Shown here in pieces: positions 21,475-49,137 of a stretch of 64,000 nt of DNA. Source of the DNA: an uncultured Candidatus Saccharibacteria bacterium (GTDB taxonomy: Bacteria > Patescibacteriota > Saccharimonadia > UBA4664 > CAZJNH01); assembly GCA_964547425.1 (NCBI GenBank), contig CAZJNH010000001.1, positions 5,295-69,294 on the forward strand, in the 5' to 3' direction. Position 1 is the stretch's first letter; each line of letters starts with the position of its first letter. The position numbers and the translations under genes are program-made. The notes beneath the pieces were generated by a model. It had not been told where the DNA came from. It saw only the letters and a list, made by a program, of their open reading frames with translations, and did no database searches.

Positions 21475-21692
21475 TAAAAGGAAAAATTACTTTCGTTGGT
21501 CACTTCATTGTACTCATCGGGAGTAATTCTGCCTAGTTCGAGCAACCGGTCCATATCGGCAATGAAACTAGCCCTTACTCGGCTGAAGCTCTCAGAACCT
21601 TGATCATTGAGAACTTTGAGCACTGCAATACACTCCGCGATATAACCCTCAACTTCCTCTTCTCTTAATGCGTCAACGGCGTCAGGATCCAA
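21474..21692 (-). CDS. small acidic hypothetical protein
   Basis: 72 aa ORF between recO and glyS, overlapping both ends by a few nt. Co-directional with its neighbours. Confidence 0.3.
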   Translation of the reverse strand: MDPDAVDALREEEVEGYIAECIAVLKVLNDQGSESFSRVRASFIADMDRLLELGRITPDEYNEVTNESNFSF

Positions 21693-22404
21693 CCCTCTCC
21701 TCCATCATATCCCGGCTATTAAAACGCAGACCAAAGGTTTGTTCCAGAAACGCGTTGGACATCGGTAACGACAGCTTAGCTAATTCATCAACCTCGTCCG
21801 GCAGCTGGTTCTTTAGCAGTGCTTGCCAGACCGCCAAAGTCTCCCGGCTCATTTTGTATGGACGGCTGGTGGTACAACCTCCGTCGACCACTCCCCCTTT
21901 TTTCGGATCAAAATAGTACCCCTCGGAAACCTCGCCGCACACCACACAGTTCTCCAGATGCGGCCGATAACCTAAAAGATCCATCAGTCTCAGCTTAAAA
22001 CTTAGTTCCAGTGTTGAGCTGTAACCTCGCCGGTCGAGCTCCCCCAGTAAATCTGCCGCCAGACGAAACACCCGCGGCTCCGCCCTCCCTTCACCAGTCA
22101 GCTTCTCAAGCATCTCCGCCATTAAGTAAGCGAAGGTCAGACTCTGCCAGTTCTCAGCCAAATTCAAATAATGTTTTTTAAGCCTGGCCCCAGCGATCAC
22201 GTCCAAGTTTCGTCCCTTAGCAAACATCAACTCGGTTTCGCTAAACAACTCCAAGTGCCCGGCCATCCGGCTTTTTATCTTCCTCACTCCCCTGGCCACG
22301 CCTTTGATCTTGCCATGGTCGGGCGTCAGAAACGTAATAATCCGGTCCGCCTCGCCAAAATTAATCCGCCTTAAAACTAACCCGGTCGTTTTATAGGTTG
22401 GCAT
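21682..22404 (-). CDS. recO: DNA repair protein RecO
   Basis: N-terminal OB fold (GLVLRRINFGEADRIITFLT) and a central Cys4 zinc motif (CVVCGE..C), as in RecO. Confidence 0.8.
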   Translation of the reverse strand: MPTYKTTGLVLRRINFGEADRIITFLTPDHGKIKGVARGVRKIKSRMAGHLELFSETELMFAKGRNLDVIAGARLKKHYLNLAENWQSLTFAYLMAEMLEKLTGEGRAEPRVFRLAADLLGELDRRGYSSTLELSFKLRLMDLLGYRPHLENCVVCGEVSEGYYFDPKKGGVVDGGCTTSRPYKMSRETLAVWQALLKNQLPDEVDELAKLSLPMSNAFLEQTFGLRFNSRDMMEERVGS

Positions 22405-22424
22405 GCTTCTATTATAGCTTTAAC

Positions 22425-22501
22425 GCTCCGGAGGGGTATTGCCCGAGGCGACGCTTGTCGCAAGGTCGACGGGGAGCCGAGGGCGGTACCCCGGAAGGAG
22501 C
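22425..22501. ncRNA. conserved structured element, copy 1 (unknown family, candidate ncRNA or cis-regulatory RNA)
   Basis: 77-nt imperfect hairpin: GCTCC...GGAGC outer stem, a 12-bp GGGGTATTGCCC/GGGCGGTACCCC stem, conserved core CGACGCTTGTCGCAAGGTCGACGGGGAG. About 80% identical to 37845-37923 with compensatory changes in the 12-bp stem. Strand undetermined. Confidence 0.4.
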
Positions 22502-22885
22502 CTAGCTTTTGACTTCGAGGGCCTTGACGGCTTTTTCTACGACTTCGTCAGGTGTGTGGTGAGACTTTATAAGATAGTCGGCAACACCGAGAGCGCGGGC
22601 CAAGTCCCGGTTCATATCGACCTCGGATTCACCAAGATTCGTCAGCAAAATCACTGGGATCTGCCGCAGCTCAGGATGCTTTTTGACCTCTTTCAAAACA
22701 TGGAAGCCATTAACGCGAGGCATTAAGATGTCGAGTAAAATCAACTCCGGCTTAAAGGTTTCGAGCATCTTCAAACACTCTTCCCCGTTGGTCGCAACCG
22801 TAATGTCGTGGCCTTCCAGCTCAAACTTTGCCTGGTACATCTCTACCAGAATATTGTCGTCCTCTACCAGCATAATTTTGGCCAC
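22502..22885 (-). CDS. response regulator, receiver domain only (CheY-like)
   Basis: 127 aa. Acidic pocket (LVEDD), phospho-acceptor (LLDILMP), conserved lysine. No output domain. Confidence 0.85.
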   Translation of the reverse strand: MAKIMLVEDDNILVEMYQAKFELEGHDITVATNGEECLKMLETFKPELILLDILMPRVNGFHVLKEVKKHPELRQIPVILLTNLGESEVDMNRDLARALGVADYLIKSHHTPDEVVEKAVKALEVKS

Positions 22886-36717: not shown

Positions 36718-37797
36718 CTATTGAATCTGGCTTTTTAGATAAGCTTCGATGAACAAATCGATGTTGCCGCCCAAAACTCCGGCGGTGTCACTGGTCTCGG
36801 CGCCGGTGCGATGGTCTTTGACTAAGTTATACGGATGCAAAACGTAAGAGCGGATTTGGCTCCCCCACTGCTCGGTACCGCTCGATACTTTGATCTCCGA
36901 CAGCTTTTCACGGTGCTGCTCCTCCATCAACGCCGCCAGCCGGGCTCGCAGTACTTCCATCGCCTTCTCCTTGTTTTGCATCTGCGATCGCTCGTTTTGG
37001 ATGCTGACCGTCACCCTTGTCGGAATATGAGTAATCCTGACCGCCGAATCTGTGGTGTTAACCGACTGGCCACCATGCCCTCCGCTGCGAAATACGTCAG
37101 TCTTCAGATCCTTGGGATCAATTTCTAGTTGTGGCCCGCTGATCTGCGGCATCACCTCAACCAGGGCGAAGGAAGTCTGGCGCAAATGGTCGGCGTTAAA
37201 CGGACTTTGGCGCACCAGGCGGTGAACCCCTTTTTCGCTTTTGAGATTCCCGTAAGCATAGGGCCCATTAACCTCGAAGGTTACGCTTTTGATCCCGGCT
37301 TCCTCCCCTTTTGATAAATCCAAAACCTGAGCCGTGAACTGTTTTTTCTCCGCCCATCGCAAATACATCCGCTGAAGCATCTCCGCCCAATCCTGCGCGT
37401 CGGTGCCGCCGGTACCGGCATAAATCGAGATGATCGCTGAATCCTTGTCGTAGTTGCCTGCCATCTTTAGCTCAAACTCCATCGCCACAAACTCGGCCTC
37501 TAGCTGCTGGGAAGTTTTGCCAATCTCGGCCGCCATCGCAACATCGGCGTCTTCAAGTAGAGATAAGTTACCCATGATCTCGCTTTCGAGATTGCGCCAA
37601 CTTTCAATGTGCTTATTGAGCCGGGCGTGTTCGCTGGAAATCTTGGCGGCTTGGGCTTGATTGGACCAAAAATCAGGCTCCTGCATCTGCTTCTCCAGCT
37701 CAGCAACCTTCCTCTCTTCGTCCTCAATTTTAATTTGGACGATCGCCTGGCGAACCTCGGCCAGCAAATTCTCCAAATTCTTCCGCACTTCTTGCAT
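36718..37797 (-). CDS. prfB: peptide chain release factor 2 (single intact frame, no programmed frameshift)
   Basis: SPF tripeptide (VRQSPFNADHLRQTSF) and GGQ (RSGGHGGQSVNT). 359 aa uninterrupted. Confidence 0.85.
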   Translation of the reverse strand: MQEVRKNLENLLAEVRQAIVQIKIEDEERKVAELEKQMQEPDFWSNQAQAAKISSEHARLNKHIESWRNLESEIMGNLSLLEDADVAMAAEIGKTSQQLEAEFVAMEFELKMAGNYDKDSAIISIYAGTGGTDAQDWAEMLQRMYLRWAEKKQFTAQVLDLSKGEEAGIKSVTFEVNGPYAYGNLKSEKGVHRLVRQSPFNADHLRQTSFALVEVMPQISGPQLEIDPKDLKTDVFRSGGHGGQSVNTTDSAVRITHIPTRVTVSIQNERSQMQNKEKAMEVLRARLAALMEEQHREKLSEIKVSSGTEQWGSQIRSYVLHPYNLVKDHRTGAETSDTAGVLGGNIDLFIEAYLKSQIQ

Positions 37798-37844
37798 CCC
37801 TCTATTCTACCTTCCCTACCCTACTCTGAGGAGCCTTCGCAACC

Positions 37845-37923
37845 GCTCCGTAGGGGTATTATCCGAAAACGACCCTTGTCGCAACGTCGACCGGGGAGTT
37901 GAGGATGGTACCCCGAAAGGAGC
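37845..37923. ncRNA. conserved structured element, copy 2 (same family as 22425-22501)
   Basis: GCTCC...GGAGC outer stem and GGGGTATTATCC/GGATGGTACCCC inner stem; the GCCC/GGGC of copy 1 is replaced by ATCC/GGAT here, which keeps the pairing. Core CGACCCTTGTCGCAACGTCGACCGGGGAG. Confidence 0.4.
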
Positions 37924-38024
37924 AAATTCCCAAACAAAAAAGGACTCCGAAGAGTCCTTTTTTGCCTTGCCATCTCGCGACAAGCGCCATAGTTACGGGG
38001 CCGAAGCCCCGCGACTATATTGCG

Positions 38025-39176
38025 TTATCGCTTTAAAGCCTTAAGTAAGTCGCGCTTAGAGCGGATCCAGGCCCGGGCAGAATATCCCAGAGCGCTGAAA
38101 CCGACTAGGCCGCCAGCCGCGCCTTCGGCACCGGTCTGCGGCAATGGGCCGCTAGGCAGGTGGCCGCCGCCAACGTTACAGTTGACTTTGCAAACCGGGG
38201 GCTTGTGGTTACAGTTGAACGTACAAACCGGAGGTTTACAGTTGTTCTGCTCTTGGCAGGTAGGCGGTTTACAGGTGTTAGTCTGCTCACAGGGCGGGGT
38301 TTGAGTGACGATCTTTACGATCGCAACGTCACACCCGTGCTGGTTCCCGTTAGCAGTGAAACACGCTTGGTTAGTAATGAACCCGGCAGTACTTTGGGTA
38401 ACTTTGACGGTGATGTCAAAGAACTTCAGTTTACCGGCCGCAATGTCTCCAAAGTTGGATTGAATGTGGCGGGTGGACGGGTTGCTAACTAACTCAACTC
38501 CAGCGGGCAGATCGTCGGTCATAACCACGTTCTGCATTACTGAAGTACCATTGTTGGTAATGGTGACATCGTATTTTAGGGTGTCACCGGTGTTGACCTC
38601 AACGGCGTGGGCCTGATCGTCGGCGGCGTGGTTGGTGTTAGGGTCGGTAGTCTCATCAATCACACGCTTAAAGATCTGGCCGAACGGGGCGGAAATCTGT
38701 TTTACGGGGTTGCCGCAAGATTTGATGATCGCCCAGTGGAAGGTACCACCAGAAACGTTAACGAACGCCGGCAACGAGTTGCTGACGAACGACACTGAAG
38801 TCGGGCGCATCCACAGGCTGCCGTCATGGACGGAACCTTGCAGGAATTCGCGGCCTGAGCTCCAGACGTTGGTGGCTACAACGTGACCATTTACGATCAC
38901 TTGACCGCTTTTGGTAACCGAGCCATCAACCGTTGAGCTGGACAAAATGCCAGCCTCGGTGATGCCGCGGCCTTCGTTGTAATAGATTTGTTTTAGGTTG
39001 GCGGAGCTGTTTACTCCGTCACCTTGGTTAATACGTTTAACTAAAGTCGCTTTGTCGCCCGCACCACCGTTCATCACGGCGTTGGAGCTAAAGTCAGCGG
39101 CCAAAACATGTTTGGCGCCAACAGCAATTCCGGTCACTAGCGCTAAGGCTAGTAAAATTTTCTTGATCTTGAACAT
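38025..39176 (-). CDS. LPXTG-anchored surface protein with Cys-rich CxPPxC repeats
   Basis: Signal peptide. C-terminal LPQTG followed by a hydrophobic stretch and a basic tail (sortase sorting signal). Four CKPP(T/V)C-type repeats. Strong SD (AAAGGAGG). Confidence 0.7.
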   Translation of the reverse strand: MFKIKKILLALALVTGIAVGAKHVLAADFSSNAVMNGGAGDKATLVKRINQGDGVNSSANLKQIYYNEGRGITEAGILSSSTVDGSVTKSGQVIVNGHVVATNVWSSGREFLQGSVHDGSLWMRPTSVSFVSNSLPAFVNVSGGTFHWAIIKSCGNPVKQISAPFGQIFKRVIDETTDPNTNHAADDQAHAVEVNTGDTLKYDVTITNNGTSVMQNVVMTDDLPAGVELVSNPSTRHIQSNFGDIAAGKLKFFDITVKVTQSTAGFITNQACFTANGNQHGCDVAIVKIVTQTPPCEQTNTCKPPTCQEQNNCKPPVCTFNCNHKPPVCKVNCNVGGGHLPSGPLPQTGAEGAAGGLVGFSALGYSARAWIRSKRDLLKALKR

Positions 39177-45476: not shown

Positions 45477-45513
45477 TCCTCTCCTTTGGTCGGAAATGAA
45501 AATGGCTGCGGAA

Positions 45514-45729: not shown

Positions 45730-45958
45730 CTTTGCTCCTTTGCTCGGAAATGAAAATGGCTGCGGAGCTGGTTACTGCAACAGTTACGGGAAAGTTAGGA
45801 AAAGCGTTTCAAGTTTGTAAGTTTGGGCTTTTCTAACTGAAAACCATAAAGAGAAAATAACCAGGTCTGCAGCCACTTGGGCTAGCAACTCAAAGAACGA
45901 ATGGGCACAAGTATACCAAAGCATTACCCTTTTGTCAACCCTTCTACACCGCTCAGGG

Positions 45959-49073: not shown

Positions 49074-49137
49074 TTAGAAGTTTGTAATTCTCTAATCTGT
49101 TAAGGGTGTAACCCTTTTCAGGTTGGCGATTTACAAG

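Follow-up and report, generated by a model that had tools for sequence, protein, structure and literature searches.

A structured element with compensatory base changes in two copies beside recO and prfB of an uncultured Saccharibacteria bacterium

Two copies of one hairpin element and their genes

The window, which is the whole stretch of 64,000 nt analysed here, comes from an uncultured Candidatus Saccharibacteria bacterium and carries two copies of a hairpin element, one between recO and a response-regulator gene and the other upstream of prfB. The features of the two loci are as follows, with positions counted from the first letter of the window.

21682-22404, minus strand: recO (TIGR00613)
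22410-22416, both strands: predicted near-symmetric -10 box of recO, TATAAT on the minus strand (22416 to 22411) and TATTAT on the plus strand (22410-22415)
22422-22424, plus strand: AAC tail 5' of stem P1, found also in copy 2 and in the L162 contig introduced below
22425-22501, plus strand: copy 1 (W1), 77 nt, covariance-model score 101 bits
22425-22429 with 22497-22501, plus strand: stem P1 of copy 1, GCUCC/GGAGC
between P1 and P2 of copy 1, plus strand: internal loop L1, GGA/GGAA
22433-22444 with 22481-22492, plus strand: stem P2 of copy 1, 12 bp with two U.G pairs
between P2 and P3 of copy 1, plus strand: internal loop L2, GA/GA
22447-22449 with 22476-22478, plus strand: stem P3 of copy 1
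apical part of copy 1, plus strand: stem CUUGUCG/CGACGGG with loop CAAGGU
22502-22885, minus strand: single-domain response regulator, whose stop codon touches copy 1
36718-37797, minus strand: prfB (TIGR00020), an uninterrupted ORF
37803-37809, both strands: predicted near-symmetric -10 box of prfB, TAGAAT on the minus strand (37809 to 37804) and TATTCT on the plus strand (37803-37808)
37845-37923, plus strand: copy 2 (W2), 79 nt, covariance-model score 105.7 bits
37845-37849 with 37919-37923, plus strand: stem P1 of copy 2
between P1 and P2 of copy 2, plus strand: internal loop L1, GUA/GAAA
37853-37864 with 37903-37914, plus strand: stem P2 of copy 2
between P2 and P3 of copy 2, plus strand: internal loop L2, GAA/GA
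next to L2 of copy 2, plus strand: stem P3, AAC/GUU, followed by the same apical stem as in copy 1
37936-37963, both strands: bidirectional intrinsic terminator (A6, GGACTC, CGAA, GAGTCC, T6), read by eye and not listed by a simple scanner
38025-39176, minus strand: DUF11/CLIPPER-repeat protein, upstream of the terminator

Nearly all genes between 11 and 62 kb of the window lie on the minus strand, and the GC skew of the plus strand is negative throughout the window. The best relatives of the encoded proteins are Saccharimonadia/Patescibacteria MAG proteins at 42-76% identity, and thus the host is an uncultured CPR bacterium with few sequenced close relatives.

The original prediction had described two diverged copies at these positions that fold into the same long hairpin, and both the bounds and the fold hold. 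The two copies agree in 66 of 81 aligned columns (about 81%), and when they are aligned together with their flanks, the similarity begins at (C)GCTCC and stops at GGAGC, with unrelated sequence on either side. RNAalifold returns a single common hairpin of 28 pairs, none of them broken and four of them compensatory, and these compensatory pairs take up 8 of the approximately 14 differences between the copies. The double compensatory change predicted for the 12-bp stem (GC/CG to AU/UA) is present, and a second double change, GGC/GCC to AAC/GUU, lies in the helix next to that stem. The two T-G wobbles expected in the 12-bp stem were found together with two more in the apical stem, and the described gene context, with recO and prfB on the minus strand and the response-regulator stop codon abutting copy 1, is likewise correct.

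No third copy was found within the 64-kb window by blastn, nhmmer or a covariance-model search with filters off. Two independent Logan assemblies contain copy 1 in identical form, and a third contains the 5' half of copy 2; the organism is present in samples SRR9179560 and SRR9179562. We also observed that a Logan contig of the window organism (L183, positions 1-91) breaks inside copy 2 at ...CGACCCTTGT; it may be the hairpin or repeat that disrupts assembly from short reads, and metagenome assemblies could then under-represent the family.

Homologues in related genomes and selection for base pairing

Two further members were reached by walking RecO and PrfB homologues and the contigs that encode them. 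The first lies on a Logan contig (L162) of a related uncultured member of the Patescibacteria from the same sample as the window organism, which encodes the closest RecO relative (P0002, 73% identity); it occupies the same spacer between the response regulator and recO (122 nt) in the same orientation, and was found with a first covariance model (R1) at 44.8 bits and an E-value of 1e-8, its scores ranging from 44.8 to 57.6 bits. The second, on Logan contig L178 (PrfB 76% identical), lies in the same spacer between the terminator and prfB and was found at 27.6 bits and an E-value of 2e-4 with a model (R2) rebuilt on the three sequences W1, W2 and L162; both E-values are rough owing to a shortened calibration. 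The L178 member stands 47 nt from the prfB ATG, the same distance as in the window, and is followed after 10 nt by a terminator whose stem-loop GGACTCCGAAGAGTCC is identical to that of the window. Its unconstrained minimum free energy (MFE) fold by itself reproduces P1, L1 and P2. The known family thus comprises four members from three uncultured genomes.

Pairing is maintained across these members in the manner expected of a selected structure. In the four-way alignment, which was fitted to the model and so favours the structure, 98.0% of 101 cells are paired and 11 of the 28 pairs have changed on both sides, a result matched by none of 500 shuffles, and the single-sequence MFE folds give the same basal helices. 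One-sided variation occurs in only one of the 28 pairs. As a control, partners slid by 1-3 columns gave 29-51% paired cells and at most three compensatory pairs. The covariation argued for in the original prediction has therefore grown, from four compensatory pairs to 11, with the addition of the two homologues from other genomes, and the covariance-model search that it proposed did recover further covarying homologues in related genomes.

What the four members share is P1 of 5 bp, L1, the 12-bp P2 and the small G/A loop L2. P1 is GCUCC/GGAGC and has flipped in a compensatory manner to GGUCC/GGACC in L178, and L1 is purine-rich and asymmetric, with GGA or GUA opposite GGAA, GAAA or AAA; the AAGGA on the 3' side is invariant in all four. 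The length of the apical part varies from 27 nt in both window copies through 46 nt in L162 to about 60 nt in L178, and little of its sequence is shared. The original prediction had singled out a nearly invariant apical core, CGAC-N-CTTGTCGCAA-N-GTCGAC-GGGGAG. That core is indeed invariant between the two window copies, but the apical part differs, and is longer, in both homologues from other genomes; judged from the four aligned sequences, the conserved module is the basal stem with its loops and not the apical core.

Strand preference

The folding energies distinguish the two strands. For copies 1 and 2, the plus strand reaches -50.6 and -45.5 kcal/mol (z -6.0 and -6.8), as against -38.0 and -35.1 kcal/mol (z -3.2 and -4.1) for the minus strand, and in all four members it is the plus strand that folds better, by 10-13 kcal/mol. 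The MFE folds of the four members contain 4, 3, 4 and 5 G.U pairs on the plus strand versus 1, 0, 2 and 2 on the minus strand, and P1 and P2 taken together hold seven G.U cells and no A.C cell over the four. L178 has C-G in place of one U.G pair of P2 that the other three members retain, and its next pair is a flip, from the U.G of the window copies to G.U. The claim that the wobbles favour the plus strand, made from the two copies, thus extends to all four members. The plus strand is antisense to every flanking gene. Because the wobbles would be mismatches for a function in duplex DNA or on the minus strand, the pattern points to a single-stranded plus strand molecule, and it fits RNA and ssDNA alike, because G.T wobbles are tolerated in single-stranded DNA too. 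Taken together, the results identify a genuine structured element, not classified before, in which pairing on the strand opposite to the neighbouring genes is clearly under selection.

This strand preference bears on the explanation that the element works in minus-strand mRNA, as a 3'-UTR or intercistronic hairpin (of the kind of a REP stabiliser, an RNase III site or a U-less terminator) that would end or protect the upstream transcript and uncouple recO from the two-component operon. The element follows the response-regulator stop codon directly in copy 1 and by 3 nt in L162, and its minus strand still forms a stable hairpin with the z-scores given above. In a relative (L004, GCA_964478595.1, 9979-10001), the spacer between the response regulator and recO is 21 nt with a Shine-Dalgarno (SD) sequence and no element, so that the two genes are coupled, whereas in the window (22405-22501) and in L162 they are kept apart by the element and a -10 box. 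The element is thus accompanied by a change in operon structure, which suggests that it separates the operon. However, on the minus strand the wobbles become A.C mismatches and the fold is weaker in all four members by the margin given above, and only GUU follows the hairpin there, with no U tract. In addition, the prfB-site element of two genomes has, in the minus-strand direction, a strong terminator before it and the prfB -10 box after it, and little minus-strand transcription is expected in that stretch. We therefore consider a role in minus-strand mRNA very unlikely.

Predicted promoters and terminators around the element

In each of the four members, a predicted -10 box is situated between the element and the ATG. 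The recO TATAAT and the prfB TAGAAT of the window both end 6 nt before the ATG; recO of L162 has a -10-like box, TGGTAGAAT in the minus-strand sense, also 6 nt before its ATG, and prfB of L178 has the -10-like box TAAAAT at 9 nt. The same arrangement recurs in the window at large, as several of the first-in-operon genes (starts at 1651, 15076, 22404, 28344, 35447, 37797 and 59474) have a TAnnnT box that ends 6-7 nt ahead of the start codon and lack an SD, and internal genes have AGGAGG-type SDs. On this pattern of boxes and SDs, these first-in-operon genes, including recO and prfB, look leaderless, and the element would therefore lie upstream of their start sites rather than within a 5' UTR. 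The original prediction had placed each copy directly upstream of a gene start, which is right as to position; most likely, the element sits behind the promoter of a leaderless gene and is not part of the recO or prfB 5' UTR. A riboswitch or other 5'-UTR regulator of recO or prfB was also considered and rejected, as the better-folding strand is the opposite one, a -10 box intervenes (with the transcript start placed by its position) and Rfam is negative.

A consensus promoter scan found no -35/-10 promoter on either strand. The only candidate for a promoter of the plus strand itself is the weak -10 box that it shares with the divergent gene, which reads TATTAT, TATTCT, AATTCT and TATTTT in the four members. 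Near-symmetry is characteristic of bacterial -10 boxes, which often initiate transcription in both directions from start sites separated by 18 bp (PMC10268837).

As to terminators, a scanner asking for a GC-rich stem with a U tract within 0-2 nt lists no intrinsic terminator at either element. Next to the element, reading by eye gives CUAGCUUUU on the plus strand and GUUAAAG on the minus strand. A terminator does lie 10-12 nt downstream in copy 2 and L178 and is absent in copy 1 and L162; that of the window also serves as the minus-strand terminator of the upstream DUF11 gene. The recO site (copy 1 and L162) has no clean terminator after the hairpin, and a short U run (CUUUU) begins there 5-8 nt past P1.

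These features bring in the explanation that the element is a cis-acting stop or insulator, in which the plus strand hairpin terminates or pauses the antisense transcript back-fired from recO or prfB before it enters the upstream gene, with an RNA product that has no function. The plus strand is the one favoured, the recO-site hairpin begins 3-4 nt after the predicted divergent start and abuts the response-regulator stop codon, the U run of copy 1 and L162 lies close behind P1, and a variable apical part is what would be expected if stem stability alone mattered. Intrinsic terminators, including bidirectional ones, also resemble the element in being GC-rich hairpins between co-directional genes. 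Unlike them, however, the element is far longer, has conserved internal loops and lacks an adjoining U tract on either strand, and the terminator scan was negative. A terminator needs neither conserved internal-loop sequences nor a U.G pair that is kept in three of four members. At the prfB site, moreover, a true, canonical bidirectional terminator adjoins the element, and one of the same type is present in relatives that have no element, which would make the element redundant there. For these reasons, we regard an antisense stop as distinctly unlikely.

We also observed that the prfB-site leader carries GGAGCC or GGAGACC about 10 nt before P1 (window 37826-37849 and L178 434-457), which is able to base-pair with the 5' side of P1 (GCUCC or GGUCC); the two have changed together. 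This motif may form an alternative helix, as far as a comparison of two sequences (n = 2) can suggest.

Searches against known families and collections

No known family accounts for the element, in agreement with its predicted unclassified status. Rfam 15 gave no match on either strand of the window at gathering thresholds, and local Rfam scans by E-value with both copies, L162 and L178 gave noise only, with best scores of 14-19 bits against thresholds of 39-100. A weak match to the Actinomyces-1 family, at 14.3 bits and E 4.6 where the threshold is 39.1, was discarded. ARAGORN found no tRNA or tmRNA gene in the window, blastn against plasmid and phage collections found no match, and no known REP or MITE family matches. 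A search of the literature on non-coding RNAs of CPR bacteria and Saccharibacteria found nothing relevant.

Pattern searches gave a similar outcome. The exact apical-core pattern, CTTGTCGCAANGTCGAC(N)GGGG, has no match in GTDB genomes, and its sole match in JGI metagenomes (L003) is due to chance, being without flanking homology. This pattern, the only one run on the JGI metagenomes, is genome-specific and hence a poor query for relatives. A pattern built on the conserved basal part of the hairpin has 15 matches in GTDB genomes, which belong to unrelated phyla, approach the number expected by chance and have none of the stems. In IMG/VR, three patterns, among them a shorter core and the basal pattern, gave chance matches or none, the basal pattern giving none.

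Several known motifs and elements were also tried and rejected. Compared by hand, the P3/P4 junction of copy 1 has GGGGAGCC as in Kt-7, but the bulged strand lacks the G-A that a K-turn requires and copy 2 does not fit; L1 (GUA/GAAA or GGA/GGAA) comes close to the AGUA/GAA of the sarcin-ricin motif and does not match it. An integron attC site is not supported, as there are no paired R''/R' core sites (RYYYAAC ... GTTRRRY): AAC occurs at one end only, where it is unpaired, and the opposite end is GGAGC followed by unrelated bases. No conserved small ORF lies downstream of the SD-like AAGGAG. A palindromic protein operator is incompatible with arms that covary between two copies of one genome. 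A possible target-site duplication, TAGCTTT (7 nt), flanks copy 1 only, with nothing comparable at copy 2, L162 or L178.

Distribution and a possible origin as a selfish repeat

The element is absent at the same sites in five to six relatives, and it is therefore dispensable. The spacers between the response regulator and recO in L006 and L007 (236 and 124 nt) are of unrelated sequence, and folding and model search detected no member in them; the regions upstream of prfB in L179, L180, L181 and L182 also have no element, and in them a terminator of the type seen in the window comes immediately next to the prfB -10 box. Some 73 kb of sequence from related genomes contained no copy beyond the two positional homologues. 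The element is thus confined to a small clade made up of the window organism, the L162 organism and the L178/L006 organism, and in the last of these it has been lost, or was never present, at one site. In the 236-nt spacer of that organism (L006, 1633-1868), a different long hairpin was seen beside the response-regulator stop. Model R2 does not detect it, and it may be what is left of a decayed copy of the element or have no relation to it.

Identities over the basal part are 78% for W1-W2, 76% for W2-L162, 68% for W1-L162, 65% for W1-L178, 56% for W2-L178 and 54% for L162-L178, so that the copies group by genome and not by locus. Together with the positional homology, this requires gene conversion or re-copying within a genome, and such grouping is shown by multi-copy RNA genes and by repeat families alike.

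The second of these brings in the explanation that the element is selfish DNA, a palindromic repeat like REP/REPIN sequences or MITEs: its single-stranded DNA hairpin would be recognised by a transposase encoded elsewhere, its copies would spread or replace one another within the genome, and any RNA would be incidental. The likeness is considerable. REP/REPIN sequences are extragenic and non-coding, form long imperfect hairpins of about 70-110 nt in several copies per genome, are more alike within a genome than between genomes and keep their pairing by compensatory change; MITEs such as the Correia elements of Neisseria and the pneumococcal RUP and BOX are likewise small and non-coding, have terminal inverted repeats, insert beside promoters or terminators and leave empty sites in relatives. 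Here, two copies with sharp ends and unrelated flanks occupy unrelated loci of one genome, the distribution is patchy with empty sites in relatives, and the size is REPIN-like. MITE-type terminal inverted repeats are present, the whole element being an imperfect inverted repeat throughout. The copies are alike by genome in the identities given above (W1-W2 78% and W2-L162 76% vs W2-L178 56%), and compensatory change is also expected of hairpins that a transposase recognises.

Nevertheless, the differences from such repeats are considerable too. REPs come in tens to hundreds of copies and are associated with a cognate RAYT gene and with a tetranucleotide conserved 5' of the hairpin, whereas the element has two copies in 64 kb, no tetranucleotide and no transposase in view in the window. 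The sampled sequence of relatives contained positional homologues only, and both loci are shared, at the same ATG distance, with genomes at 73-76% protein identity, which argues for long retention and not for turnover. Compared with MITEs, the element is very rare and has no consistent target-site duplication, and both of its arms covary, which neutral decay of terminal inverted repeats would not produce. No GTAG-type 5' motif is found, the flanks being AAC in three members and CCCT in L178; no transposase occurs among the window genes, which are syntenic housekeeping genes throughout, and no mobile-element gene lies near either copy. The core or base patterns recovered no homologue in GTDB genomes, JGI metagenomes (core only) or IMG/VR. 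Moreover, the folding strand has lagging-strand composition, as seen from its negative GC skew, and would therefore not be the lagging-strand template on which such transposases act. Taking both sides together, we consider a selfish repeat an unlikely origin, though a more probable one than the antisense stop or the minus-strand mRNA element.

A putative small RNA from divergent transcription

The reading that we favour, tentatively and somewhat short of an even chance, is that the element belongs to a small structured plus strand RNA produced by divergent transcription from the leaderless recO and prfB promoters, with a base that binds a protein. It is favoured because it would account for the strand asymmetry, the conserved loops on stems whose sequence changes, the positional conservation between deeply diverged genomes and the geometry of promoters and terminators. 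The model of divergent transcription draws solely on the -10 boxes, and strand and ends are those predicted from the sequence.

According to this model, the recO and prfB -10 boxes, which end 6 nt before the ATG, would fire both ways from start sites separated by 18 bp. The plus strand transcript of the recO site would begin 3-4 nt before P1, at A22422, the first base of the AAC tail, in the window and at the C/A that immediately precedes AAC in L162. The predicted start of the prfB site precedes P1 by about 25-30 nt; in the window it falls near 37815, so that copy 2 would have a leader of about 30 nt. The transcript would end there at the bidirectional terminator 10-12 nt past the hairpin, with a 3' end at 37958-37965 in the window, and an RNA of about 150 nt is predicted. 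A protein or RNP partner may recognise the conserved base (P1, L1 and P2, including the invariant AAGGA), and the apical part would be free to vary. The family would be kept at two loci and homogenised within each genome by gene conversion.

The architecture of such an RNA would recall small protein-binding RNAs anchored by a stem and present as paralogues, such as the Y RNA/YrlA type and sibling sRNAs, in which the 5' and 3' ends form a basal stem, a conserved asymmetric loop is purine-rich, the apical domain is variable, the length is about 80-110 nt and more than one paralogue is present per genome. Unlike those RNAs, the element has no Rfam match to Y_RNA or YrlA, and no Ro/Rsr gene or other candidate partner gene lies nearby, so that the resemblance is architectural only. 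The other likeness is to the non-coding divergent transcripts of bidirectional bacterial promoters, described in PMC10268837 and in Warman et al. 2021 as cited therein. As in those transcripts, the start is predicted on the strand opposite to a leaderless gene, at 18 bp from that gene's own start, and the transcript would be antisense to the upstream gene. Divergent promoter transcripts are generally regarded as unstructured by-products, whereas here the first 80-110 nt of a transcript that is itself predicted form a selected hairpin.

We speculate further that this may be a new small structured RNA family of a Saccharimonadia-like CPR lineage, a "back-fire" transcript of bidirectional leaderless-gene promoters whose module of a purine-rich loop and U.G pairs recruits a protein, with two homogenised paralogues beside recO and prfB. 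In this full form the proposal is improbable on present evidence, and we put it forward as a conjecture. If it is true, a reduced genome has turned divergent transcription from its promoters into a functional RNA gene.

On either reading, as a small structured RNA or as a palindromic repeat, the element is a new family of a familiar general kind. To our knowledge, almost no regulatory RNAs have been described in CPR/Patescibacteria, whose genomes are tiny. If the element acts as RNA, it would be among the first lineage-specific structured RNAs of this group, and it would offer a concrete test case of whether divergent transcripts of symmetric bacterial promoters can gain a function. If it is instead a REPIN-like repeat, it would show that such elements persist at very low copy number in a reduced genome. 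The covariance model provides a handle for surveying CPR genomes, whichever reading holds.

Other features of the window

Apart from the element, prfB itself (36718-37797) is a single ORF that spans the whole RF2 profile without the programmed +1 frameshift typical of prfB in many bacteria, and the corresponding NCBI protein (P0121, PrfB) starts three codons later, at a GTG. Two other short repeats were noticed. An intergenic motif of about 37 nt, TGTAWTTCNCTAAYCTGTTAAGGGT..ACCCTT, occurs at 450-486 and 49083-49119, where it forms a small hairpin and is 81% identical; it could be a shared promoter or operator, or another small repeat. The second is a 32-nt repeat at 45481-45512 and 45735-45766, 97% identical and reading TCCGCAGCCATTTTCATTTCCGA(C/G)CAAAGGAG on the minus strand, which is a shared leader with SD before two adjacent small genes, a cupin/AraC_binding-like ORF of 140 aa and a membrane ORF of 71 aa.
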